The translations under genes and the position numbers were made by a program. From positions 1 through 13,464 of the forward strand of contig CAWDKY010000008.1 in the NCBI GenBank assembly GCA_963802945.1: DNA of 13,464 bases, given 5' to 3'. Shown in pieces: positions 1,467-13,463 of this stretch. A model generated the notes under the pieces. It was not told where the DNA came from and did no database searches. It was given only the letters and a program-made list of their open reading frames with translations. Position 1 is the first letter of the stretch. The number at the start of each line of letters is the position of its first letter. The DNA comes from an uncultured delta proteobacterium. GTDB taxonomy: Bacteria; Desulfobacterota; RBG-13-43-22.

Positions 1467-1595
1467 CTAACTCGGTATAGGTGTAATAGTAATAATGGTG
1501 AACCCTCTGAGAGTAGTGCCTGAAACCGTGGCATCAATTTCCGTGTCGATTTGTGAATATATGGAAAGTGCTGTATAGGTGACGGTTAAGGGCAT
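1467..1595 (-). pseudogene. Orphan C-terminal fragment paralogous to the lipoprotein at 3358-3858
   Basis: Translates as MPLTVTYTALSIYSQIDTEIDATVSGTTLRGFTIITITPIPS*, aligning by eye with LTTTFTAPSPYSYSGETFNTVITSTVAGTNIQGSIPLAIIVLPSS*. An in-frame TGA lies immediately upstream. Confidence 0.65.
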
Positions 1596-1653
1596 TCACA
1601 CCACCCTACCAGTATTATATTTGCTGGATTTTACCCCACATTAGGGTCATTAC

Positions 1654-1692
1654 GGACACTACGTTTTGTGTCCACACTTGTGTCCACGGACA
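1654..1692. repeat. TTGTGTCCAC direct repeat (12-bp period) with inverted GGACAC/GGACA copies; possible recombinase arm-type sites
   Basis: TTGTGTCCAC at 1666-1675 and 1678-1687; GGACAC at 1654-1659; GGACA at 1688-1692. Confidence 0.5.
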
Positions 1693-2049
1693 AGGAAGTT
1701 CTCATTATCAGAATGAATAAAGAATGGATAACCAACCCTGTCCTGCATCTGGACTTTGTTGTGGTAGAACGTCTTCCCCTTGGTCATACTAAAATCTTAA
1801 GAGAAACAATTCAGTAAAAAGCAACCTTATAATCAAGGCCAATCTGACCTTCCTCTTTTTCCCACGACTAAACCCCGACTTTACCAACTCTACAAAAAAA
1901 ATAATTCTAATAATATCTAATAAAAGGTCACAAATGAGCACCCTTTTATATACCAGTGTTTCCGTAGACAAACAAACCAAAAAAGACCTTCCCATACCTA
2001 ATATCTCGGATCTGGCCCCACCTTGCAACCAGGTCCTTTCTTCTTTTTT

Positions 2050-2262
2050 TCATGCCCTTAATCGATCATGGTGTTCAAGCCCATTTCTTCCAGAGACCAT
2101 CTTCAACCTGGGGTCTCCCTTATCGATCCGAATCAATTCCCCTTTGGATAGGTTAAAAACAATCTCAGCATAAAAAGGCCAGCACACACCATAAAGAAGA
2201 ATACCCACTTCAAGCATCCTGCCATTATATAGTGCATGCTGTCCCCTGGTTGATTTCCCCAT
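2050..2262 (-). CDS. Small hypothetical protein (70 aa), possibly from a phage/island remnant
   Basis: Purine-rich GGGGAAGG upstream of ATG. Lies ~22 nt downstream of the upstream pseudogene's shifted-frame stop. Its stop overlaps (ATGA) a further short ORF MKKRRKDLVARWGQ... No recognisable motif. Confidence 0.35.
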   Translation of the reverse strand: MGKSTRGQHALYNGRMLEVGILLYGVCWPFYAEIVFNLSKGELIRIDKGDPRLKMVSGRNGLEHHDRLRA

Positions 2263-2284
2263 TTAACCTTCCCCATTATCCTTA

Positions 2285-2789
2285 TCAACAATTGATCCAC
2301 CCAAACTCGGGCGAATATCTACGATTACCATAGGTCATCATGGGATGAATATCATTCTCAAGTTCAACATCATGTCGGGTTTGTCTGATCCAGGTCTTAA
2401 GGTATGCCAACATCCCATTGTGTGCAGTCCACCACCAGCCATAACGATCGTTTATTTTTCAGTTGCGCCTTTTTGACTTTGCCGGACTGCATAAACGTTA
2501 AGCAAATGGCTTCTTGAATCAGATCCTCTTTGATAGACCTGGCCACCGGATTCCTTGAGAAATTTTTATAAAAGACTTTCCTGGCAATATTATAAGCACT
2601 GGTTGGATGGAAATGTTCGCGATCAATGATGACCTGCTTTTTGTTGTAATTCTTAATGAACCATCCTCTTTTTATGGAGGCGTGAGCGGTATTTTTCGAG
2701 ATGCCATATTTTTCCGTAATTTCTCCAACTGACATGCCTTTTGGTACAAACACTTTTTCTCTATGAATCTCAATGTCTCTGGATTCCAT
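2285..2789 (-). pseudogene. Frameshifted HTH + sigma70 region-2-like protein
   Basis: N-terminal HTH-like MSVGEITEKYGISKNTAHASIKRGW, then EDLIQEAICLTF. The annotated frame stops at 2397, but another frame from about 2458 reads KINDRYGWWWTAHNGMLAYLKTWIRQTRHDVELENDIHPMMTYGNRRYSPEFGWINC* (stop 2285-2287). Confidence 0.5.
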
Positions 2790-2948
2790 ATATGGTTCGT
2801 TATCATGCTATGGGGTTAATGGATTTTTTGAATGAAGGGGATGAAGGGGGTTAGTTGTACTGGGGAATGACAGAAAAACAGAAGCGGGGTTGAAGAAGGT
2901 TCAGGGGATAAGAATCCCCTTCTATAGATTGCTCCAAGGAAAGGGCGG

Positions 2949-2973
2949 GATAGCCCCTCGAGGGGTTATCTTT
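2949..2973. terminator. GC-rich hairpin, candidate intrinsic terminator
   Basis: GATAGCCCC-TCGA-GGGGTTATC, a 22-bp near-perfect palindrome followed by TTT on the + strand. Confidence 0.35.
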
Positions 2974-3357
2974 AATAATTTAATATACATAGTCAAATTG
3001 GTAGGTAGCAAGGGTATAGATTCAGCAGAATGGCAATAGACTGGGAAGAGGGATTAGATTCTGATTAGGGTCATCTAATTAAAAAACGAAGTTGGATAGG
3101 GTTAACTAATCCCAAAAAGGACCTAAATAAATTTTTGAAATCTTGATAACGACTAGTTGGTCGTTTTGGGGCTATTTGGGTTGTTGGTAGATCATTGAAC
3201 TAGGAGGGTCTAATCTTTATTTGGCTATAGCTCTTTTGAGTTGACTTTAACCCTTTGTTATAGTTAATATTATTCATTCTATTTTTTGCTTTCTTAAGGT
3301 TGGCAACCCCTAAACCGAAAGGCTGGTCCATGAAGCAGTTTGATAAGACCCTTTTTC

Positions 3358-3858
3358 TCAGGAAGAAGGAAGTACTATTATAGCTAAAGGGATGGACCCT
3401 TGTATATTCGTCCCTGCGACCGTAGACGTAATTACCGTATTGAAAGTTTCCCCTGAGTAACTATATGGCGAAGGGGCGGTAAAGGTAGTTGTTAGCGCCC
3501 CCCCAGAGGTTGACCCTGTTAAGCTGGTATTTGTCGATCCATTAAAAGTACCTCCCGCCGAAGAAGTCAATATAATGGTAGCATCGGTCCGATTCCCTTT
3601 CGAATCAGTTAAAATAACTGTAATGACGGTGGTCCCACCAGCGTACATTGTGTTAGCTGTGGCAGATACAGCGACATTGGCTACTGTACCGCCGGAACTT
3701 CCAAAGCCGGTGGTGGTTCCGCTGCCGACGCTATTTTGTTTATTGACATCCGAGACATTGCACCCCAGGGAAATTACCAGGGCGGCTCCCAGTAAAAAAA
3801 CCACAGTAATTGAGGAAAGAATTTTTAAGAAATGTTTTTTATTCCCAATTAGTGACAT
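3358..3858 (-). CDS. Putative lipoprotein with one bacterial Ig-like (Big_1/invasin-like) domain, 166 aa
   Basis: Likely start ATG 3858 overlaps the gspG end by 20 nt. Basic N-region, hydrophobic stretch and imperfect lipobox ISLG|C, then a Gly/Ser/Thr linker and the beta-rich pattern VAVSATANTMYAGGTTVITVILTDSKGN. Confidence 0.7.
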   Translation of the reverse strand: MSLIGNKKHFLKILSSITVVFLLGAALVISLGCNVSDVNKQNSVGSGTTTGFGSSGGTVANVAVSATANTMYAGGTTVITVILTDSKGNRTDATIILTSSAGGTFNGSTNTSLTGSTSGGALTTTFTAPSPYSYSGETFNTVITSTVAGTNIQGSIPLAIIVLPSS

Positions 3859-4267
3859 CTTGGTCTTCGCCTTCTCCGCCGGGTTTGTTGTCGCGACCCA
3901 AGGAGTAAAGATCATATTCCCCATGCGTACCGGGGCATTGATAATTGTAAGGTCTTCCCCAGGGGTCCAAAGGAAGATTTTTCTTTAGATAAGGACCGTC
4001 CCAATTTTCCTGTCCCGGGTTAGTCATCAAGGCATTTAATCCCTCCTGTGTTGAAGGATAAGAACCGGTATCCAACCGATATTGATCCAGGGCTTGACCC
4101 AAAAGCTCAATTTGGGCTTTGGCTGCCGCTTGCTTTCCCTTACCCAACTTTGGGAAAAGCCTGGGGGCCACCAAGGCCGCCAGCAGGCCGATGATGACCA
4201 TGACCACCATAAGCTCAATCAAGGTAAAGCCGCGATGGTCTGACTGGGACCGCTTGGGGATAACCAT
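3839..4267 (-). CDS. gspG: T2SS major pseudopilin GspG
   Basis: Prepilin site RG|FTLIELMVVMVIIGLLAALV; conserved YPSTQEGLNAL, WDGPYL, DPWGRPYNY and SLGRDNKPGGEGED. RBS GGGAAGGGAG. Confidence 0.97.
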   Translation of the reverse strand: MVIPKRSQSDHRGFTLIELMVVMVIIGLLAALVAPRLFPKLGKGKQAAAKAQIELLGQALDQYRLDTGSYPSTQEGLNALMTNPGQENWDGPYLKKNLPLDPWGRPYNYQCPGTHGEYDLYSLGRDNKPGGEGEDQDVTNWE

Positions 4268-4559
4268 ATCTCTCCCTTCCCTTTTCCCTGAATCCTTTGC
4301 CTGATTTTTTTAAATTAAAATACAAAACAGATGGTTAGTCAATAAAAAAATAAAATCCGCTTTAAAATCGATCAACGCTGAAACCACTCCTGTTGGTATA
4401 CGGTCATGAACGTGTAAGAAAAGGGAGGTCCAGAAAAATTTAAGAATATAAGTTTAACCTTCGAAATTGATCTGCAATTTTTTATTTGTTTATTTTCAAT
4501 TTTTGGTGTATTAAAAATATTTTGCAGATATTTTGATGAACTTAAGGAGGTTTATTCTT
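4268..4559. promoter_or_regulatory. AT-rich divergent promoter region between gspG and gspD, with the gspD RBS at 4544-4550
   Basis: Non-coding AT-rich gap between divergent genes. AAGGAGG lies 9 nt before the in-frame TTG at 4560. No specific promoter boxes could be pinned. Confidence 0.5.
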
Positions 4560-6557
4560 TTGGTAAAAAGGGCATCCCGATTCAGCCAAATCGGTCTTAT
4601 CTTTGTCATTGCTGCCCTGCCCTTCCTGGGGTCGCCGATTTCAGCTCAAACGCCCCTGCCACCCCTGTCCCCAGGATCTTCCCAGAAACAACCCCCCCTG
4701 GGTCAACCACCAATGCCTGTCCCGACATCTGAGGCGCCGGCACCTGCACCTTCAATATCATCAATGCCGTCCCCGATTCCCGGCCAACAACCAGGGGCAT
4801 CGGTAACCAATCCTCCTGCCAACAACAGACCTGAACCGTCCAATAACCAACAACCTTCTGCAAAAAGGGGAGAGGTCAGTTTTAATTTTGATGACGCTGA
4901 TGTCTTCTCCGTCATCCAGACCATTTTTGGAGGTGTTCTGAAATTCAATTATGTTATCGACCCTAAAGTAACCGGGCGGGTGAATTTCAGATCGGTGGCC
5001 CCGGTAGCCAAAGAAGATGTCCTCCCATTAATGGAGGTTATTTTACGCCTAAACGGTATCGGCGTTGTGGAAGAGGGTGGGCTTTATCGCATTATCCCTA
5101 TTGCCGATATGCCCAAAGAACCGGCCCCGGTTAAGATCGGACGGGAGCCGGGCAAGGTAACCTTGCAAGGTCTGGGATTACTTCAAGTCGTTCCTATAAA
5201 ATTTGTTACCTCTACGGAAATGGTTAAGGTTCTGACCCCCTTTCTATCCACGAATGCGGTGATCGTGGATGTGCCTAAAATAAACTATCTCATTCTGGTG
5301 GATACGGATGCCAATGTAAAAAGACTCCTGCAATTAGTCGAGATATTTGACAGCGAACAGCTTAAAAAAATAAAACCTGAGGTCTTTGTCTATCCGGTTC
5401 AAAATGCCAAGGCCGAGGACCTGGCCAGTTTGCTGCAACAGATATTCTTGGGGGCAAAAGCTCCGGCAAAATCCTCTACAACCCAAACAACATCCACAAC
5501 ATCGTCCAAACCGGCGACTACCGGAGCCCAACCCACCACACCTACGGCCCCTCTTCAAACCCAGACCACCATTGGTGCTTCCATGGGCGGAGAGGCGTTG
5601 GTTTCTGAAATTACCAAGATTTTTCCCGATAAGATTACCAATGCGCTGGTCATCTTGGCCACACCCGAGGACTATGCCCTTATCTTGGAAACCTTGAAAA
5701 AGCTGGATCAGGTCCCAAGACAGGTGATGATCGAGGTGCTCATTGCCGAGATAACCTTATCCGGTGAATTAAAATTTGGGTTGGAGTGGTCCTTACAAGC
5801 AATGGCGAATCAAGGTTTTGCTACTATTACAGGAAGTTTTATCCCGACTACGACTACCACTAACGCAGCCGGTACTACAACAACCACCCAGCCAGCGGGA
5901 TTTTCTTTTTTGGGAATTGATAAAACCGGATTGGTCCAGGGATTCTTAAATACTTTGGCTACCCAAGGAAAAACCAATGTCCTGGCCTCACCCCATATCC
6001 TGGCTGCGGATAACCGGAAGGCCAAGATCCAGATCGGCAGTCAGGTCCCCGTTGTCACCGCCGTACTAAGCACCACAACAACCACCCAATCCGTGGAATA
6101 TAAAGATACCGGGGTGATCCTGGAAATAACACCGAACATCAATGACAGCGGGCTGGTGTCCCTGGAGATCAACCAGGAGGTTTCAGATTATACCTACCAA
6201 ACAATCGGCGGATACCAATATCCGATATTTACCCAAAGAAAGGCCTCCACCTATACGGTGGCCCAGGACGGACAGACTATTGTCCTGGGCGGATTGATTC
6301 AAGAAAATATAGGCCGGACCAGATCCGGGTTACCCTTTCTAAGTAACATCCCCATCCTCGGATATCTTTTTGGTTATACGGATGACACCTCCGCCCGAAC
6401 TGAAATCATCTTATTACTCACACCCCGAGTGGTCAAAAATCAAAAAGAGGCCGAGAATCTGACCGATTTTTACATACACCGGCTGGATAAGAGTTTCAAA
6501 AAACAGATTAAAATGGAAGAATTGATCCCTCAAAAAGAAAAAAAGGATGCCAAGTGA
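4560..6557 (+). CDS. gspD: T2SS secretin GspD
   Basis: Signal peptide, Pro-rich linker, N0 (VSFNFDDADV...YVIDPKVTGRV), ring-building domains, and secretin motifs (PRQVMIEVLIAEI, NVLASPHILAADNRKAKIQIG, DGQTIVLGGLI, LPFLSNIPILGYLF). TTG 4560 is preferred over 4533/4536 because of the RBS position. Confidence 0.96.
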   Translation: MVKRASRFSQIGLIFVIAALPFLGSPISAQTPLPPLSPGSSQKQPPLGQPPMPVPTSEAPAPAPSISSMPSPIPGQQPGASVTNPPANNRPEPSNNQQPSAKRGEVSFNFDDADVFSVIQTIFGGVLKFNYVIDPKVTGRVNFRSVAPVAKEDVLPLMEVILRLNGIGVVEEGGLYRIIPIADMPKEPAPVKIGREPGKVTLQGLGLLQVVPIKFVTSTEMVKVLTPFLSTNAVIVDVPKINYLILVDTDANVKRLLQLVEIFDSEQLKKIKPEVFVYPVQNAKAEDLASLLQQIFLGAKAPAKSSTTQTTSTTSSKPATTGAQPTTPTAPLQTQTTIGASMGGEALVSEITKIFPDKITNALVILATPEDYALILETLKKLDQVPRQVMIEVLIAEITLSGELKFGLEWSLQAMANQGFATITGSFIPTTTTTNAAGTTTTTQPAGFSFLGIDKTGLVQGFLNTLATQGKTNVLASPHILAADNRKAKIQIGSQVPVVTAVLSTTTTTQSVEYKDTGVILEITPNINDSGLVSLEINQEVSDYTYQTIGGYQYPIFTQRKASTYTVAQDGQTIVLGGLIQENIGRTRSGLPFLSNIPILGYLFGYTDDTSARTEIILLLTPRVVKNQKEAENLTDFYIHRLDKSFKKQIKMEELIPQKEKKDAK

Positions 6558-6697
6558 CCAGGGACAGGTAACGGGTACAACACTACTGGTCAGGACCAAT
6601 AATCACCTCTTGAATCTTTCCTTTATCGCCAAGGCGGATTGCTTCCTTATCAGTTTTTAACGCCCTTCGATCGCTGCTTTTCAAAAATTGAGGATCG

Positions 6698-7432
6698 TTA
6701 TTCATCAGGCATGGGGATGGGCATTGCCGGCCCGATAGGCGGGGAAATCCCGGGCATCGGGCCGGGAGGCGGGGGCATACGACTGGGAGGCCCAGGTCTT
6801 TGCCCGGGAACAGGAGCTGACGGTCCGATCCTTGTCGGCTGGGGAAGAATAGGAGTAGGAGCCGGTGCACCAGAGGCCGGAACGGACGGTCTTCTGTGCC
6901 CTGAGGTCGTTTCCCTGGCCTTGGATGAACCTGGTTCTTGCAGGAGGACCTGAAGGATTTCATCTTCCCGGGTCATCATTACCTTGTCGGTCATGATCTC
7001 CTTCAACTTGAAACCGCTTAACGACTCTCCAATCATTAAGGCGGTTTGTCTCTGCCCCCGGCCGGGGGTTGAAACCGGGGCCTTTTTGTCTTCTAGATAA
7101 GCCACTTTCAAATCAGGGGTTATTAAGGTTCCGAAGAGGACAAATTCCGGTTTGGGAAGGACGGCCTCCGGTTTTGTTTCAGGCGGGATAATGCGTTCGG
7201 GATGAAAAAGATTTTGGTCGGCAATATCCCTATATTCTTGGGGTGAGGGCGCTTGGGTTTTCAAGGATTCGTTGGGGTTCTTTTCAACCGGCTTCTTTTT
7301 AATCAGGGTAGGAACATAAACTACATCCGAATCCACCCGGGGGAGAAGGAAACCAAAAAGAAAAACCAAAAAGGCGATGATCAAGATACAGTTCAACACA
7401 TTAAAATTTTTTATGACCCGAATCAGATCCAT
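6698..7432 (-). CDS. T2SS GspN/GspC-like bitopic protein with Pro-rich C-terminal tail
   Basis: N-terminal TM helix, NLFHPER motif, FVLFGTLI...GESLSGFKLKEIMTDKV (HR-domain-like). ATG 7432 is 1 nt after the gspM stop. Position after gspM supports the call. Confidence 0.75.
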   Translation of the reverse strand: MDLIRVIKNFNVLNCILIIAFLVFLFGFLLPRVDSDVVYVPTLIKKKPVEKNPNESLKTQAPSPQEYRDIADQNLFHPERIIPPETKPEAVLPKPEFVLFGTLITPDLKVAYLEDKKAPVSTPGRGQRQTALMIGESLSGFKLKEIMTDKVMMTREDEILQVLLQEPGSSKARETTSGHRRPSVPASGAPAPTPILPQPTRIGPSAPVPGQRPGPPSRMPPPPGPMPGISPPIGPAMPIPMPDE

Positions 7433-7433
7433 T

Positions 7434-8078
7434 TTATTTGCCTCCATACAAGGCGGAGACATCCAGTTTGACCATGAGTTCCCTCGGCTCCCTGAAATTT
7501 CTGACCCGGCAATCCAGTTCTTTGATCACCAGATAAGGAGTCCTGGTCTCTATAAAAAAAACAATGTCCCTTAAAGCCCCGGTGTCGGGGGCAGTGAAAT
7601 CAAAGCTCGCACTGATGATCTTAAATCGTCTTTTGTTTTCGTATTTTTCTTTTTTGACTTTGAAATCCTTTTCCGTTTTTGGTCCCTTGGGTTCCTCTTT
7701 TTTGGGCCCGGAAGGCCCGGAGACGATTTCTTCCTCCTTCCCTATTCTTTCACTGGATATAATGCCCCCCCTACTGGTAATGATGCCCTTGACCATGTCC
7801 TGAAGAGCAGCCGCGGCCAAAGAAAAGCTCTCCCCCTCCATCAGTTTTGCCGTTTCGGCCTTTCTTTGATCTTTAATGGTGATGAGCTTTTTTTCCAGAT
7901 CGGGTTTCTCGGCAATGATAGCCAAATATTTTTGAAGGGTTTTGGCCTTACTTTCTTGTTCCTCACGTATCAGGTTCAACTCTTCTTTAATCCGAAGGAA
8001 GCCGTATTGATAAATGACCAACCCCGCCAGGATCACCAAAGCAGGAATGGCCCAGATAAAAATTCTATTTTTTTTCAT
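7434..8078 (-). CDS. gspM: T2SS GspM (PilO-like)
   Basis: N-terminal TM, coiled coil, AAAALQDMVKGII, C-terminal ferredoxin-like pattern (LRDIVFFIET...LVIKELD...LMVKLDVSAL). Overlaps the gspL stop. Confidence 0.85.
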   Translation of the reverse strand: MKKNRIFIWAIPALVILAGLVIYQYGFLRIKEELNLIREEQESKAKTLQKYLAIIAEKPDLEKKLITIKDQRKAETAKLMEGESFSLAAAALQDMVKGIITSRGGIISSERIGKEEEIVSGPSGPKKEEPKGPKTEKDFKVKKEKYENKRRFKIISASFDFTAPDTGALRDIVFFIETRTPYLVIKELDCRVRNFREPRELMVKLDVSALYGGK

Positions 8079-9576
8079 CAGACGGCCCTTTAATTTCCAT
8101 TTTGATCTGAAAACGATCCATGTTTTGTCTCGGGTCTCTAAAGGTTGGGGCGGAAAACTCCACCTTCTGAAAGAGCTTCGATCCCTCCAGCCTGGGAATC
8201 AGTGAGGTGGCCGAAGGAGAATAGCCTTCTAAATTAATTTGGGATTCCGAAATTCTGAGCCTGGTCAGCCATGAATGCTTGGGCAGCAGTAGAGTAAGTT
8301 CCTTCAATATATTCAAACCCAGAGGTTTTGATTGTTTGAAGTCGTGGATAAGGTTAATCTCAGTATCAACTGTTTCAATTTCTTTTTTAAGGCTGCCGAT
8401 TTTTTTCATTTCCACCTTTTTTGAGGCAACCTGATTTTCTATATTTTGAAGTTTTTTCTTTTCTATTTCGATCGGGGTGCCCCAATAAATCCCCAATAAA
8501 ACACCCAAGGCCAAAATCAAAAAGGCCGTGAACACCCAGGGAGGCTTGGACTTTTCGTGAACCCCCTTAAGTAGTAAATTAAGGCCCAGCGACTGGGTCC
8601 ACAAGGATTCCAGCATACCACCGACAGCGGCATAAGGAATTGGCTTTCCCCCCGATTCCATTGGTCCTAGGGGCATCTCCGATTCATCTAAAAATTGAAA
8701 AGGTCGATCTAGGTGGATATTGACCAATTTTTTCAGAGATGGATTTTTATCTTTCACCAAGAAAATAACTTTTCCCAAGGCATTCATTTCTGTTGAGGAA
8801 GATTTTATTAATTCAATTTCCTGACGGATCAGTGCTGCTTTTTTCTTTTCATCTACGTCCGGAAAAATTCCATAAAAGACCTTCAGGTCAATATCAGGCG
8901 AAAAAAATACCCCCTGATATCGATTTTCATCTAGGCTGATAAAAAGTACCTGATCTGATCTTTGAATATAGCGGCACAAGGTGTTCAATCCCAACAGGTT
9001 GACCGTAATTTGATCGACCTTGAATCCTTTTTCTTGAATGGTTTTCAGATAAGGCTCTAACAAGTCGGCCCTGACCGCAGCCACGGTGATATTAACCTTC
9101 CCCTCTTCTTTTTTTAGGATCCTAAAGTCATAGTAGGCACTTTCAGGAGTAAAGGGGGTTATCCGATCCAGTTCAAAGGCGATCACATTGGAAATATTTT
9201 CCAATACACTGTCAGGATATTCTACTGTTTTAACGACCGCCCAGGCCTTGGGAAGGCTTAAAGTCAAACGGCAGCCCTCCGCCCCCAGTTCGGCCCTGGC
9301 TAAACTGAGGCTGGAGGTCAAAAAGTCCGGCGAAGGATAGTCTGCTTCGGGAAAAGGATATTCTTTCCATCCTTTCATTTTTATTCTGGAAAGAAAGCGG
9401 GAACCGAAGGCAACAGACACCCTCCCTTTTTCAATAGACAAGCAAAGGGTTTTTTTAAAGGCAATCTTGTCGTCCGCTGGGCTTAAAAACAATACCCGGT
9501 CCAGGCCTGCCCCTATTCTCTTCCCCCTCAAGCGGAGAGAACTGACTGTTTCATTGTTATGGTGAAGGAATTTCAT
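8065..9576 (-). CDS. gspL: T2SS GspL (cytoplasmic actin-like domain + TM + PilN-like domain)
   Basis: FELDRITPFT...YYDF, LNLL motif before the TM, coiled coil, PilN-like LKELTLLLPKHSWLTRL...LEGYSPSATSLIPRLEGSKLFQKVEF. Confidence 0.88.
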   Translation of the reverse strand: MKFLHHNNETVSSLRLRGKRIGAGLDRVLFLSPADDKIAFKKTLCLSIEKGRVSVAFGSRFLSRIKMKGWKEYPFPEADYPSPDFLTSSLSLARAELGAEGCRLTLSLPKAWAVVKTVEYPDSVLENISNVIAFELDRITPFTPESAYYDFRILKKEEGKVNITVAAVRADLLEPYLKTIQEKGFKVDQITVNLLGLNTLCRYIQRSDQVLFISLDENRYQGVFFSPDIDLKVFYGIFPDVDEKKKAALIRQEIELIKSSSTEMNALGKVIFLVKDKNPSLKKLVNIHLDRPFQFLDESEMPLGPMESGGKPIPYAAVGGMLESLWTQSLGLNLLLKGVHEKSKPPWVFTAFLILALGVLLGIYWGTPIEIEKKKLQNIENQVASKKVEMKKIGSLKKEIETVDTEINLIHDFKQSKPLGLNILKELTLLLPKHSWLTRLRISESQINLEGYSPSATSLIPRLEGSKLFQKVEFSAPTFRDPRQNMDRFQIKMEIKGPSDEKK

Positions 9577-10542
9577 CCTGTTTCAAATGGACTGGCGTCT
9601 TATAATAAAGTATTTTATATTGGTTGTTGGTCAAGAGAGTAACTGTTGCCCTGACCGCATAGCCCGATTGGGGTTTATCTTTGTATCCCGACGATTCAAT
9701 GGTGAACGTATTGCTATCGCTTCCATAATGAATAGTCATACTGAGGGCATACATCAAGGCCTGAATTTTGATCCCGGTTCCGCCGATCTCCTGGATGCTT
9801 TTTATATCTTGTTGTTGTCGATAGGCGATGATCTCATCAACCATATCCGTCGTCATCCCCGGAAAGGCCATCAAGACTTCTTTGGAGGCGGCATTGACAT
9901 TGATCGCATTCGGTGTCCCATAAACGGTCAGAAAATCGATTAACCCCTTTTTCCCCCGTTTCCATAAAGGAGTCCCCGGGTCACCCCTTTAACCAATAAG
10001 AGTTCCTCCAAGGTATCAAAATCGGCATTCTTGGCTTTATAGGGATTGGGCAACGAAAGGTAGTAGTCGGATTTGGCCCCATTCAAACGGCGCAAATCAC
10101 CCTTTTCCCTCCAATCCAAAATGGAGTCCACAACCGTATCTACGTCTATTCCTTCAATACCCATGATCTCGATAAGCTTCCTGAGGACTATCTCCGGGGC
10201 CGAATTAATATTTATTTTACCTGATTCATCGCTTATCTTGACGACATAGTTTCCAGCCCCTAATTGACCGGAATAAGGGCGGCCATCTATTTTCCACATC
10301 TCTCCACCTTCAACCAGGTCCTTAATCACGGAAAGCTGCATCTTTTGTCTGTAAAAGAGCTCACAAACCCCTCGTTCGATCCCCGCTTCGGCCAGGAATC
10401 TTTTTTCCATCCCCTCTTTGAAGGATAAGGTGGACAGAGTCTCGGTCCGGGCCATATAGGAGAAAGAAAAAACAATGACCATTAGGACCGCTAAAACCCA
10501 TAAAACGGTCAGTAAGGCAATACCTTTTTGATTCTTACTCAT
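9557..10542 (-). pseudogene. gspK: T2SS minor pseudopilin GspK, split by a 1-nt frameshift at 9944-9957
   Basis: KG|IALLTVLWVL, DESGKININ, DSILDWRE and ELLLVKGV in the first frame. The -1 frame continues GLIDFLTVYGTPNAINVNAASKEVLMAFPGM. Adding one base in GGGGGAAAAAGGGG gives a 328-aa ORF. Confidence 0.9.
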
Positions 10543-10566: not shown

Positions 10567-10615
10567 TTATCCGTTATTCGACATTCAACCTTCGTTATTC
10601 AATATTCGATATTCT
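10567..10615. repeat. Degenerate heptamer tandem array (7 units, approximately WYATTCR) between gspJ and gspK
   Basis: ttatccg ttattcg acattca accttcg ttattca atattcg atattct. Confidence 0.85.
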
Positions 10616-10623
10616 CTTTCTCG

Positions 10624-11334
10624 TCAATTTTTGCTTACCGCTCCTGTGCCCTGCCCGGCCTGGCTTCCTAATAGTCCTCCTCCGGTTCTCATAGAAAGGA
10701 TCATGGAAAGGTCTTTCCTGTCTTTGATCAGGTGAAGGCGTATCTTATTCGGCAGAAAAGCGGCCTCGGTCCATTCATCAACCCATTTCCCTTCTTCTTT
10801 AATCGGATCCTGATAAAAATATTCAAAATACATCTCATCAAAAAGATCCAAGAGTTTTATCTCTTTTTTGTTTTCCTGTCCTACCCCGTTTTCTGAGGCC
10901 CAAAGCGTGCGTTTCCCTTGACTCTCTTCAACTACCCGGTAGGAGACGACCACATACCCTGTCTCGCCTCCCCAAATGGAATGATTGGTAGAAAATTCGA
11001 GAAGCGCAGGCTGTCCTATAAAATAATACTTATTCTCTCCGTTTTCTTCGTGGGTCAGAGGGATTTCCGATTGTATTTGGGCGTCAATCAGATTTACAGA
11101 GGCCCTTACCCGTTCCAGGGATTCTATCTTTTTTTCTCCGGCTTCAATAGAACGAAACCCCAGTCTCAAGACGGCCACCAGGATGGAAACCATAATCCCG
11201 ACGATGGCGATGGAGATCATGAGTTCCAGCAGGGTGAAGCCGAGGTTATTCCTCTTACCTTTTTTTTCAGTTATGACTGAATTCACTTGAATCCCTGAAT
11301 CCTCGACTCCTGGAACCCTCTGGTTTGGAGTCAT
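10624..11334 (-). CDS. gspJ: T2SS minor pseudopilin GspJ
   Basis: LG|FTLLELMISIAIVGI prepilin motif and C-terminal W...W...LPNKIRL. Lies between gspI and gspK. ATG overlaps the gspI stop. Confidence 0.88.
   Translation of the reverse strand: MTPNQRVPGVEDSGIQVNSVITEKKGKRNNLGFTLLELMISIAIVGIMVSILVAVLRLGFRSIEAGEKKIESLERVRASVNLIDAQIQSEIPLTHEENGENKYYFIGQPALLEFSTNHSIWGGETGYVVVSYRVVEESQGKRTLWASENGVGQENKKEIKLLDLFDEMYFEYFYQDPIKEEGKWVDEWTEAAFLPNKIRLHLIKDRKDLSMILSMRTGGGLLGSQAGQGTGAVSKN
11286..11317. repeat. Degenerate octamer array (4 units, approximately CYYGAATC) inside the gspJ leader coding region
   Basis: cttgaatc cctgaatc ctcgactc ctggaacc. Confidence 0.7.
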
Positions 11335-11756
11335 ACCGGTTTTTCAACCATCTTCAAGGTCGTTAGAGTCAAAAATTTTTCCTTATTCCCCTGAGTCCAA
11401 TAAACCTTGACTTCTATTTCCATCAGTTTCACTGAGAGGCTTTCCGACCTCTCCGACAAGGTATCCGAAACAGAAACCTGAAATCGATATCCGTTATCCG
11501 TAATCCCATGCCAAGTCCTTTCTGAAACGTCTTTGTCTTCCAGAACCTCTCTCATCTTGGCCTGGGCCTCCAAAGAACCGGCCACGTATTCTTCCGAAGC
11601 TGAAATGGACCTCAGGTTGGCTGAAAAAAGCTGTAAAACAACGGTGCCGGCCACTCCCAGCAGGGCCAGAGCAACCAAAACCTCCAGCAAGGTAAACCCG
11701 GCCGTTTTATTCAGGGGCTTCATTTCAGCCTTCTTTCGATATTCATTGTTCGCCAT
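11331..11756 (-). CDS. gspI: T2SS minor pseudopilin GspI (alternative start at 11723)
   Basis: AG|FTLLEVLVALALLG prepilin motif, about 120-aa mature protein, located between gspH and gspJ. Confidence 0.88.
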   Translation of the reverse strand: MANNEYRKKAEMKPLNKTAGFTLLEVLVALALLGVAGTVVLQLFSANLRSISASEEYVAGSLEAQAKMREVLEDKDVSERTWHGITDNGYRFQVSVSDTLSERSESLSVKLMEIEVKVYWTQGNKEKFLTLTTLKMVEKPV

Positions 11757-11773
11757 TCGATGTTCCCTATTCG
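11732..11773. repeat. Degenerate heptamer array (6 units) overlapping the gspI start
   Basis: tctttcg atattca ttgttcg ccattcg atgttcc ctattcg. Confidence 0.8.
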
Positions 11774-11904
11774 ATGACTTCGTAAAAAGAAGTCATTCCC
11801 GCACACGCGGGAATCCAGGCCCTGCGTAACCAATTAAAAACACTGGATTCCCGTTTTCACGGGAATGACGAAAATGGATTTCGTCGACTTTTTGCGGGTT
11901 CATC
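11773..11904. mobile_element. 132-bp MITE/REP-like palindromic element with two ATTCCC-N8-GGGAAT (dRS3-like) units
   Basis: Imperfect terminal IRs GATGACTTCGTAAAAAG / CTTTTTGCGGGTTCATC. ATTCCC-gcacacgc-GGGAAT at 11795-11814 and ATTCCC-gttttcac-GGGAAT at 11847-11866, arranged as GTCATTCCCG...ATCCAG / CTGGATT...CGGGAATGAC. Confidence 0.85.
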
Positions 11905-11943
11905 CACGGGTTCATCCATTGGTTCTGTTTGTCTGAATAGGCT

Positions 11944-12423
11944 TCACCGGGTAACTACTGCCCCGAGTAAAGGGTCCAGCTCGATTCTTATGACCCTTTT
12001 TTTATTGGACAATTGAAATTGAGCGCTGTCCATACCCCAATTCGATTCAAAAACCAGCCGATATTGCCCGCTCCGAACCTCTTCCCCTGTTGAATCTACT
12101 ATTTTGAGTTCCAAATGGGAAGGGATTTTCTTGACCGGTCGCCCTTCAATTCCATATTCTTTCGAGTCCAGATTAACGGACCATCCTTGTTGTCCCCCAT
12201 GAATTTTGGCCAAATCACGGGCCTGTCTCAGTGTAGCTGAAAATTCCCTGGCCGTTGCCTGGAGCTTGGCCGAAGACAGAAGGTTGGCAAAAGAGACCGT
12301 CACCAATCCCAGGATCAGCAGGCTTAACAACAAGACAATGATCAATTCCAGCAGGGTAAAACCGGATGGATTTTTAATTAATTTTTTCGAATATTGAATA
12401 TCGAACACCGAATTTCGAATCAT
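11944..12423 (-). CDS. gspH: T2SS minor pseudopilin GspH (FimT/GspH-like)
   Basis: SG|FTLLELIIVLLL; LQATAREFSATLRQARDLA helix; lies upstream of gspI. Confidence 0.88.
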   Translation of the reverse strand: MIRNSVFDIQYSKKLIKNPSGFTLLELIIVLLLSLLILGLVTVSFANLLSSAKLQATAREFSATLRQARDLAKIHGGQQGWSVNLDSKEYGIEGRPVKKIPSHLELKIVDSTGEEVRSGQYRLVFESNWGMDSAQFQLSNKKRVIRIELDPLLGAVVTR

Positions 12424-12429
12424 GAAATT
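12388..12429. repeat. Heptamer array (6 units, opposite orientation, approximately YGAATRW) forming the gspH start and leader
   Basis: cgaatat tgaatat cgaacac cgaattt cgaatca tgaaatt. Confidence 0.85.
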
Positions 12430-12796
12430 ATCTACTCTTCTTTTTTGCTGTCTGAATACTTTTTACAAAAATTGATATTAATTCGTTGTTTTCATTGATT
12501 AGAGACTTAAGTTTTCTTTGTTGAATCAGTTTTGCCTTTTCGATCATTAACAGCCATATTCTTGTTTCCCTCAATTCCTTAAGACAAATTTTCATCTTAT
12601 GGATAAAATCAACTCGAGATTCTGCACCTTGGGCTTCTCCATAATTGGAAGCCGGAGAGGTGCCGCAACGAATGAGTTGCCCGGAAATATGATTACCGGT
12701 TCTTGTTTTTGGTAACGATTCAACTTCTGTAATTATTTGAACGGCGAAATGAATCAATCGTTCTTCAAGATCAAATATTTTTTCTTCCTTCAACAT
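12428..12796 (-). CDS. Four-helix-bundle protein (23S rRNA IVP / TIGR02436-type family)
   Basis: 122 aa with the family pattern DLEERLIHFA...LPK...QLIRCGTSPASNYGEAQGAESRVDFIHKMKICLKELRETRIWL...ENNELISI. Confidence 0.93.
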   Translation of the reverse strand: MLKEEKIFDLEERLIHFAVQIITEVESLPKTRTGNHISGQLIRCGTSPASNYGEAQGAESRVDFIHKMKICLKELRETRIWLLMIEKAKLIQQRKLKSLINENNELISIFVKSIQTAKKKSR

Positions 12797-12806
12797 TCGT
12801 TATTCG
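12786..12806. repeat. Short heptamer array containing the four-helix-bundle start codon
   Basis: tccttca acattcg ttattcg; the minus strand reads cgaataa cgaATGt tgaagga. Confidence 0.7.
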
Positions 12807-12834
12807 AAATACTTGCTAACTTTTTTAACTCTTT

Positions 12835-12920
12835 AATATTGAAGATCGAACTCCGAATATCGAATCAGGAAGTTTTTTCACTTCGATATTCAACATTCAA
12901 TATTCAAAATTCGACATTCT
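12835..12920. repeat. Inverted pair of heptamer arrays forming a long imperfect palindrome
   Basis: aatat tgaagat cgaactc cgaatat cgaatca ggaagt [tttttc] acttcg atattca acattca atattca aaattcg acattct. Confidence 0.88.
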
Positions 12921-12935
12921 ATTTGCATGGTCTTT

Positions 12936-13463
12936 TTAAAAAGGAAGATCCGTGATACTGAAAATAGCCATCAGCATGGACAAAACAATAAAGCCGATGA
13001 TCAATCCCATCACTAAGATCATCGCCGGTTCCAGAAAGCTGATAAACCTTTTTATGGAGACCCGCAAACTTTTTTCATAAGTGGCCGCCACCTTCAACAA
13101 CATATCGTCCAATTGACCGGTCTCCTCCCCCACCTTGATCATGGATAAGGCCAGGGGGGGGAACACCTTGGAAGCGGAAAGCGGCAGGGCCATGCCCTTG
13201 CCTTCTTTCACCCCGGTTGACACTTCCTCTAAGGCGGAAGCAATCACCTGATTACTGACTACGTCCCGTGCATTTCTTATGGCCTGCAGCAATGGGACCC
13301 CGCTCTTGATCAGGGTGCCCAAGGTCCGGCAAAAACGGGCGGTCTCCAACTTTCGGATGATATCTCCAACCAATTTAAGTTTTAAACCGTCCCATCGAAA
13401 CCGACCCTGTTCCGATTTAGTGTAGGTCCGGAATAGAAGCCAGACGAAAACAATCAACATTAG
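12936..13463 (-). CDS. gspF: T2SS inner-membrane platform protein GspF, C-terminal part (5' end outside window)
   Basis: ARFCRTLGTLIKSGVPLLQA, MIKVGEETGQLDDML and LEPAMILVMG motifs. Frame is open to the window end. Confidence 0.96.
   Translation of the reverse strand, partial: LMLIVFVWLLFRTYTKSEQGRFRWDGLKLKLVGDIIRKLETARFCRTLGTLIKSGVPLLQAIRNARDVVSNQVIASALEEVSTGVKEGKGMALPLSASKVFPPLALSMIKVGEETGQLDDMLLKVAATYEKSLRVSIKRFISFLEPAMILVMGLIIGFIVLSMLMAIFSITDLPF

Follow-up and report, generated by a model that had tools for sequence, protein, structure and literature searches.

Contig CAWDKY010000008.1 of an uncultured delta proteobacterium (Desulfobacterota; assembly GCA_963802945.1) contains a type II secretion system (T2SS) operon in which a small four-helix-bundle gene lies between arrays of heptameric repeats. 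The whole stretch analysed, 13,464 nucleotides (nt), is referred to as the window. On its minus strand, the genes follow each other as gspF, a four-helix gene of 122 codons, gspH, gspI, gspJ, gspK, gspL, gspM and a GspC/N-like gene. A reading of the sequence alone had proposed that a periodic array marks every junction from gspF to gspK, and that arrays and small protein together colonise or regulate surface-structure operons. The order of parts and the gene names given there are confirmed, as are the overlapping gspK/gspL and gspL/gspM junctions and the 1-nt gap after gspM, all without arrays. The arrays are real, but three unrelated kinds of repeat had been pooled; these neither form one system nor are restricted to surface-structure operons. 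What recurs elsewhere is the four-helix gene with its arms, a cassette of defined anatomy that is spread over many phyla and unrelated operons, co-oriented with its neighbours and under purifying selection. ORF-deleted copies (ORF: open reading frame) and arms standing alone are also observed, and orthologous junctions differ by gain or loss.

The four-helix gene and the repeats around it

The four-helix gene (12428..12796; the features below are on the minus strand unless stated otherwise) encodes a member of TIGR02436/PF05635 (S23p, IVP), with profile scores of 87.9 bits (cut-off 24) and 60 bits (cut-off 33.8) that pass both curated thresholds. The predicted structure (pLDDT, the model's own confidence score, 93) consists of four helices. 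It best matches 2RLD and 2GSC (TM scores of structural similarity 0.81 and 0.83), with Avd (4DWL) more distant at a TM of 0.74 and 14% sequence identity; the earlier description as a small Avd-like protein thus holds. Structure comparison gave no nuclease fold. By analogy with the 2RLD structure, which has five chains, and with Xcc0516, a described homopentamer (PMC4990558), the window protein is probably a homopentamer as well. It has 22 basic and 15 acidic residues. Its search against a phage sequence collection returned 2 matches.

A single scan of GTDB genomes yielded 553 relatives, and the best 80 loci among these 553 were analysed. One of them, L001, is an orthologous operon. Compared with the L001 copy, the four-helix gene has the lowest ratio of non-synonymous to synonymous divergence in the operon (dN/dS 0.08) at a dS of 1.54, similar to the gsp genes; since dS is near saturation, the ratio is rough. 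In a quick tree the two copies are sisters (support 96). The tree is used for this pair alone, and because 42 of its 77 inner branches are open no transfer between phyla is claimed. The divergence argues for purifying selection on the protein, and for a gene retained intact at the gspF/gspH site for a long time.

In the mRNA sense, six arrays of GAA cores at a 7-nt pitch all lie within 10577-12919. The rest of the 13.4-kb window holds no further chain of at least four GAA cores, and chains of at least five were absent from 200 shuffles (mean 0, maximum 0). The arrays are about 40 nt long, mutually 65-78% alike, and of two complementary types, A and B. Next to the 3' part of gspF (12936..13463; T2SSF PF00482, TIGR02120), the host gene upstream of the cassette, lies arm A1 (12880..12921; six cores, 12882-12919), found by core-chain and periodicity scans. 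It is followed by a 10-nt spacer and arm B1 (together 12829..12879; five cores, 12841-12871). Arm A2 (12782..12805), a truncated arm of four cores found by core-chain search, holds the start codon of the four-helix gene, and arm B2 (12387..12426; six cores, 12389-12426) holds the gspH start. Two single arms of six cores stand further downstream: A3 (11733..11772; cores 11735-11772), which covers the gspI start or lies just before it, and A4 (10573..10614; cores 10577-10614), which is intergenic between gspJ and gspK and absent in L001. A2 and A3 fell below the threshold of a generic period-7 detector, and locus counts obtained with that detector are therefore conservative. A further period-7 stretch with another, GGATWAC-like core (11468-11506, 19 bits) lies in the gspI coding region and is possibly due to chance.

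The notion of junction repeats fits A4, which is intergenic, but not B2, the octamers described below and possibly A3, which are coding and fall in predicted prepilin leaders. These leaders have 21 residues in GspH (gspH, 11944..12423), most of them encoded by B2 with either of two in-frame starts, 20 in GspI (gspI, 11331..11756, with an alternative start at codon 12), whose first possible start is overlapped by A3, and 32 in GspJ (gspJ, 10624..11334). GspK and GspG have leaders of 7 and 13 residues for comparison. Profile matches identify the three long-leader proteins as minor pseudopilins.

Two elements are unrelated to the heptamers. The first, between gspH and gspI, had been taken for a miniature inverted-repeat transposable element (MITE); a repeat element is indeed present, but its identity is that of a known dimer of repetitive extragenic palindromes (REP) of class CGTC-1. 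The composite (11773..11918; fold z -5.4) has two CGTC-1-type palindromes (11791-11817 and 11844-11870) within a looser outer inverted repeat, and a 12-nt duplication at 11895-11918. The palindrome at 11844-11870 agrees exactly with the CGTC-1 definition, which has been equated with Neisseria dRS3 (PMC3733652): CGTC tag, 8-bp stem starting AT, 4-nt loop and CCA tail. The element thus shares tag, stem, loop, tail and dimer form with CGTC-1 REP/dRS3, but the palindrome at 11791-11817 is tagged AGTC, and the element is absent in L001 and bears no relation to the heptamer arms. The second is a GGATTC-type array of period 8 (11281..11319, array 11286-11319; 18.8 bits), a separate family that barely exceeds background in a plain 28-nt autocorrelation scan (19 versus 18 for the 95% null). 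Because the gspI stop and gspJ start overlap (ATGA, 11331-11334), this array lies inside the predicted 5' end of gspJ. Its pairing with B2 (-12.9 kcal/mol) is no stronger than that of shuffled sequences (-12.8), and with B1 it reaches -22.5 versus -15.8 kcal/mol (standard deviation 3.2). The octamer design recurs at L013 (3558-3592), and an octamer A:B pair occurs in L006. No four-helix gene was shown to be flanked by octamer arms both upstream and downstream, period 8 occupying the two sides in 1 of 77 GTDB and 0 of 16 plasmid loci, and no gene that could own the octamers was found.

Alternative A:B pairings, as had been suggested, are supported by predicted energies: each A can pair with either B at -21.8 to -34.6 kcal/mol, compared with -8 to -13 kcal/mol for shuffled sequences. 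In the predicted fold of 12360-12945 (z -4.2), the ORF is enclosed by an A1:B2 stem of about 28 bp, inside which B1:A2 pairs across the four-helix start codon. The A1:B1 hairpin alone has -29.7 kcal/mol (z -5.1). Alternative pairings are possible because A1:B1 can form alone before B2 exists; A1:B2 pairing would cover the gspH start. A3 and A4 are predicted to be unstructured alone (A3, z 0.15).

As to the remainder of the window, gspK (9557..10542; profile matches) is split over two frames near 9944-9958, within a G/A run, and is intact in L001 (317 residues); the frame break is either a real lesion or an assembly error. The gene termed gspN has a weak profile match, to GspC models. A promoter and terminator scan of the window gave nothing firm (8 promoter-like sites versus 3.8 expected, standard deviation 2.0; 4 terminator-like versus 3.0), and an Rfam scan gave two weak chance matches outside the array region and no rRNA match. 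On the opposite strand, gspD (within 3839-6557) is convergent with the gspH-gspN run. The gspG gene lies apart from gspF-gspH, and L001, arranged as gspE, gspF, cassette and gspH, likewise has no gspG between gspF and gspH. Positions 1-1055 carry a PAS/sigma-54 regulator whose AAA domain ends early at 1055, which may mark a truncation or insertion boundary; low-coding DNA extends from there to about 3350. A Ser/Thr/Gly-rich, lipoprotein-like ORF of 188 codons (3358-3924) overlaps the gspG end and has no Pfam or NCBIfam match; its product is possibly a surface protein or secretion substrate.

The cassette in other genomes

The expected correlation of arrays with four-helix genes was found. Among the 77 GTDB loci with enough flank, 56 have a period-7 array upstream, 67 have one downstream and 50 have both, whereas control periods of 5, 8, 10, 11 and 13 occupy both sides in 0-1 of 77. 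In a plasmid set of 16 records, picked for spread from 31 with distant homologues (30-43% identity), arrays stand on both sides in all 16, with a unit that differs from gene to gene. The flanks of one gene also resemble each other: inverted 7-mer sharing in the GTDB loci is 11.3 for cognate, 3.9 for non-cognate and 1.9 for shuffled flanks, and sharing in either orientation in the plasmid set is 24.3 versus 2.5. With the window included (n=78), flank pairs are inverted in 35 loci, direct in 18, both in 13 and neither in 12. Loci with direct flanks often bear a whole A:B unit on each side, as around the four-helix genes of L015, L020 and L067. A span of 5-6 units was found for the arm in 50 of the 78 flanks downstream and in 41 of the 78 upstream; no downstream span reaches 8 units or more. 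Some arms (L030, L087, L095) have expanded by whole units, as ordinary microsatellite slippage would do. As an origin, however, slippage or chance is refuted and retains next to no probability: the arms are degenerate, of fixed length, inverted and gene-linked in two independent sets, and none of the 200 shuffles produced a comparable chain. Slippage may act on the arms later.

Across 13 close loci, sequence identity ends at the outer arm ends. Arm A in these loci often has a middle ACAAGGAA unit, positioned like a Shine-Dalgarno site, and arm B starts at the stop codon. Four-helix proteins that are 91-95% identical have different neighbour genes (L004/L006, L002/L007). At three unrelated sites (L002, L004, L006) a common outer inverted repeat, CATAAGCGCTAACTT, lies about 45-75 nt beyond the arms and may represent a carrier miniature transposon; a TA flank is seen in L002 and L060 alone, where it borders the outer repeats. 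Profile and structure searches found no transposase in the window element. The core-site motif of integron attC sites is GTTRRRY, and an attC reading was rejected on finding 0-1 match per arm.

When 74 neighbours on the upstream side and 78 on the downstream side were scanned with Pfam, ordinary operon partners emerged; the flanking pairs include carA/carB, gyrase or topoisomerase B/A, pntA/pntB, cheR/cheB, trkH/trkA, two ketosynthases, DUF1549/DUF1501 and PFL activase/PFL. By hand count, Pfam-named neighbours are co-oriented with the cassette in 55 of 60 cases upstream and 48 of 57 downstream. Such a spread over unrelated operons fits the idea of colonisation.

Dedication to surface-structure operons, in comparison, did not survive. 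It has in its favour the repeats at four consecutive gsp junctions, the same cassette site in L001, and a window-type B arm in 15 of 115 GspH leaders (among the matches listed, 120 of 358 homologues, 115 were parsable). Against it, prepilin motifs lie near a cassette in 1 of 80 GTDB loci, L001 alone, and T2SS, lipopolysaccharide (LPS)/capsule or SusC/D neighbours in about 7 of 80 (hand count). Plasmid cassettes are located in helicase/methylase, CRISPR and efflux operons, and in a fatty-acid/polyketide synthase (PKS) cluster (L028, 3001-10051), 6 of 11 further junctions carry arrays. The proposal is largely refuted and must be considered improbable; a T2SS-specific control system is likewise unlikely.

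Arrays also occur away from four-helix genes, at about 2.5 times the density seen for control periods. ORF calls in the GTDB loci are crude and some sites lie near a cassette, and with this proviso 73 of 89 distant arrays are outside ORF interiors, versus 25% expected. They occupy 46 of 336 co-oriented junctions (control 11), 10 of 89 convergent and 8 of 92 divergent ones, and 2 of 84 overlapping junctions versus 24 of 142 short gaps. Beyond 400 nt, 32 of 95 share the unit of the local four-helix gene. Among 32 small ORFs beside distant arrays, 2 encode four-helix proteins, 1 a GIY-YIG protein and 1 a PD-(D/E)XK fragment, the rest being housekeeping or unnamed; most distant arrays are therefore without an adjacent four-helix gene.

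Several individual loci deserve mention. L028 and L033 (960-9220) are Planctomycetota fatty-acid/PKS clusters with heptamer arrays of varied units at multiple junctions. In cyanobacterial plasmids (L086, L090), four-helix cassettes adjoin cas1, and the reported association of IVP with CRISPR may be simple cassette insertion. Tyrosine-integrase fragments lie immediately 3' of the cassette in two Verrucomicrobiota loci (L059, 6414-7001; L067, 599-976).

Empty units, single arms and their possible origin

In L001, the cassette also lies between gspF and gspH, and B there also encodes the GspH leader. The gspH/gspI junction of L001 has an A arm and an empty A:B unit and lacks the REP element, the gspI/gspJ junction has heptamer A:B units in place of octamers, and the gspJ/gspK junction has no array. 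As junction arrays are unlike at three of four junctions, a conserved punctuation code is unsupported.

The gspI/gspJ unit of L001 reads as a mini-ORF (MSKGMATS and a stop codon that overlaps the gspJ ATG), in which the cassette start is fused to its end. Similarly, the A1/B1 join of the window, GAAGTGAA-AAAACTTC, corresponds to the left cassette end of L001 fused to the right end of the family, and a near-identical join is found in L050. In L060, two full tandem cassettes are followed by two ORF-deleted ones inside a GxxExxY-type nuclease gene. On the model of the mini-ORF and the ORF-deleted copies, the A1+B1 palindrome is most readily taken for an 'empty' cassette, one without an ORF. A3 at gspI and A4 at gspK are best read as single leftover arms. 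The tandem set in this PD-(D/E)XK gene (5656-7528) has an outer inverted repeat with TA on both sides, and a TAACTGA-like array lies upstream of the gene.

Repeat-derived leaders are not confined to these two operons. GspH leaders (n=115) have at most 8 residues in 20 cases and at least 15 in 71, although predicted starts may be too far upstream. The long ones show a lag-7 self-identity of 0.117 versus 0.070 for shuffled sequences. With motifs defined by eye, 63 of 115 fit eleven repeat-like motifs, and 5 resemble the complement of the octamer. In either case, many repeat families have inserted at the junction before gspH, which is empty in other cases, and tolerance of insertions fits this better than a conserved code.

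A role of the arrays as recombination points for shuffling pseudopilin genes had also been suggested, and the position of gspI-gspJ between direct A copies and the tandem duplication at L060 would suit it. The H-I-J-K order is kept, however, and divergence from L001 is even across the operon (dS 1.2-1.8 for gspH-gspK and 1.3-2.3 for gspF, gspL, gspM and gspN), in what is a two-sequence test on a single pair; arrays of 40 nt that are just 65-78% alike are a further point against it. Shuffling is thus very improbable.

A domesticated translational regulon too seems unlikely, although TRAP-like binding to the arrays, as had been suggested, is plausible. The pentamer would bind single A arms in many mRNAs in the manner of TRAP and tune downstream starts, in this operon lowering or balancing the minor pseudopilins. 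In support, A1, A3, A4 and B2 each have exactly six cores, A3 and A4 are predicted to be unstructured and lie at or near starts, and the dN/dS of the four-helix gene is low (0.08). In addition, all five Avd protomers contact one RNA stem-loop (bioRxiv 2023.10.23.563531), and TAACTGA arrays stand directly before start codons (PMC4679880). Against this stand the differences between orthologous junctions, the different unit families often found at adjacent junctions (L028), the modest share of arrays beyond 400 nt that have the unit of the local gene (32/95), and the arrays at convergent and divergent junctions.

We favour, with a probability somewhat above even, a cassette resembling an intervening sequence (IVS), whose heptamer arms, empty units and single arms have gathered at tolerant junctions. 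The unit is a promoterless cassette of about 450-500 nt, comprising arm A with 5-6 heptamers and often the ribosome-binding site and start of the gene, the S23p/IVP gene, and a complementary arm B that starts at the stop codon. It would be the mRNA-dwelling form of the S23p-encoding rRNA IVS and would be transcribed together with its host operon. Pairing of A with B into a stem of about 30 bp would enclose the ORF and hide the start codon, and this stem is probably a substrate of RNase III. The pentameric basic protein may bind its own arm RNA, with roughly one heptamer per subunit, for self-control or for spread, and spread would depend on a trans-acting enzyme or a carrier transposon. Empty A:B units and single arms would then arise by duplication, deletion of the interior and loss of arms, and would persist where they do little harm. 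Prepilin leaders are cut off by prepilin peptidase. Survival at slack junctions and in the cleaved GspH, GspI and GspJ leaders, rather than at tight overlaps, would explain why F-K looks punctuated and K/L/M/N is bare.

This picture is complicated by a number of observations that weigh against it. The loci are not independent (L073 equals L078, and three are carA/carB loci), and their flanks are cleanly inverted in just 35 of 78. Plasmid arms are looser in length: 5-6 units are found upstream in 8 of 16 loci and downstream in 4 of 16, and an arm can reach 18 units. No mobility enzyme was found for the cassette, and the tandem copies of L060 come from a metagenome-assembled genome and could be partly mis-assembled. 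Mismatches of the G-U type outnumber A-C ones 172:134 when pooled (p 0.03), and in 33 versus 24 loci, beside 568 other mismatches, which gives a weak indication of selection on the transcribed strand. RNase III cleavage within a polycistronic mRNA could be costly. Lastly, the cassette here is old and stable, being sister to the L001 copy with a dS like that of the gsp genes, and a benefit to the host is therefore allowed.

Some of these points bear on a DNA-level element of the REP-RAYT or MITE type, in which a trans-acting enzyme would recognise the arms as inverted sites on DNA, and RNA pairing would be a by-product. The inverted, register-matched arms with their position-specific middle unit agree with this, as do the weak strand asymmetry, the direct copies of whole A:B units around the gene (L015, L020, L067) and the outer inverted repeats at L002, L004, L006 and L060. 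Strong co-orientation with host transcription, a protein without nuclease fold, and known relatives that act on RNA argue against it. It is possible but doubtful, and it is compatible with the IVS-like cassette favoured here, the two not being exclusive.

Relation to known systems

The closest parallel is the S23p-encoding IVS of rRNA. In Coxiella 23S rRNA, the S23p ORF lies in a loop closed by a 28-bp terminal stem, tandem heptamers precede its start, RNase III cuts in the first repeat, and the origin of the element is left unexplained (PMC4990558). The cassette shares with the IVS of Coxiella and Leptospira (PMC4990558) the protein family, the sense-strand ORF in the loop, complementary arms of about 28 bp (predicted here) and heptamers before the start codon. 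It measures about 535 nt from A1 to B2, versus 428 nt (PMC4990558). The cassette lies in an mRNA junction, whereas the IVS is in rRNA helix 45; both of its arms are heptamer arrays, with empty and single-arm derivatives nearby; and its ORF appears to be under purifying selection, while that of Coxiella is decaying. The cassette thus matches IVS anatomy, yet is not a member because it is not in rRNA.

Avd, from diversity-generating retroelements (DGR), is related in fold, and is a pentameric, basic, RNA-binding protein of which five protomers contact a single stem-loop (bioRxiv 2023.10.23.563531). The window protein, by contrast, matches PF05635 and not the bAvd family. No reverse transcriptase (RT) was found among the window ORFs scanned, nor a template/variable repeat pair, the longest direct repeats having 40 nt. 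Among the adjacent genes scanned at other loci, the sole DGR-type genes are an RT fragment in L026 and a weak bAvd-like match in L015. The latter locus (1493-3708), where a bAvd-like gene, the four-helix cassette and a gene with an Lcl C-terminal domain adjoin and have heptamer arrays in common, is possibly DGR-related.

Intergenic heptamer repeats are also known from cyanobacteria as short tandemly repeated repetitive (STRR) sequences. The TAACTGA heptamers of Beggiatoaceae, Cyanobacteria and Bacteroidetes are intergenic and precede start codons, and a binding protein was suggested as their possible mobile part and left open (PMC4679880). They resemble the arms in period, in copy number (about 2-6) and in their frequent position just before starts in operons; in the main text of PMC4679880, four-helix gene terms and S23 are not mentioned. 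In L094, a four-helix gene is flanked by TAACTGA-like units. PMC3936711, PMC10053308, PMC10910872, PMC6749651 and PMC8700078 mention the protein or heptamers, each on its own. No literature linking four-helix genes of mRNA operons to heptamer arms was found in a search outside which most subscription papers and supplements lay.

A wider proposal can be put forward tentatively, and is more likely to fail than to hold. S23p/IVP pentamers would read heptamer arrays sequence-specifically, with about one unit per subunit and matched by subfamily, and gene and arms would form a widespread RNA-level selfish element. The rRNA IVS would be one of its insertions and the Avd of DGR a recruited relative, with leftover arms as the source of orphan heptamer repeats (TAACTGA, STRR) and in places of translational control sites. 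This would join three loose ends: a very common protein family whose pentamer structures are solved but whose function is unassigned, the origin of the 23S IVS, and the intergenic heptamer repeats whose binding protein was being sought (PMC4679880). The arrays may point to what the ring-shaped S23p/IVP protein recognises. Every four-helix gene brings its own, testable candidate ligand. For annotation, the long GspH, GspI and GspJ leaders of these taxa, together with some of their small ORFs, should be viewed as repeat-derived.

Two further systems offer partial parallels. REP-RAYT elements (RAYT: REP-associated tyrosine transposase) consist of a small gene with its own flanking repeats, which also occur alone. 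The cassette shares this arrangement, but the four-helix protein has no nuclease domain. TRAP is a ring protein that reads periodic repeats with eleven-fold symmetry. By analogy, the window combines a candidate ring protein with periodic repeats, although the ring would be five-fold and a complementary arm is present. A repeat number of 5-6 fits a pentamer in the GTDB set, and more loosely in the plasmid set.

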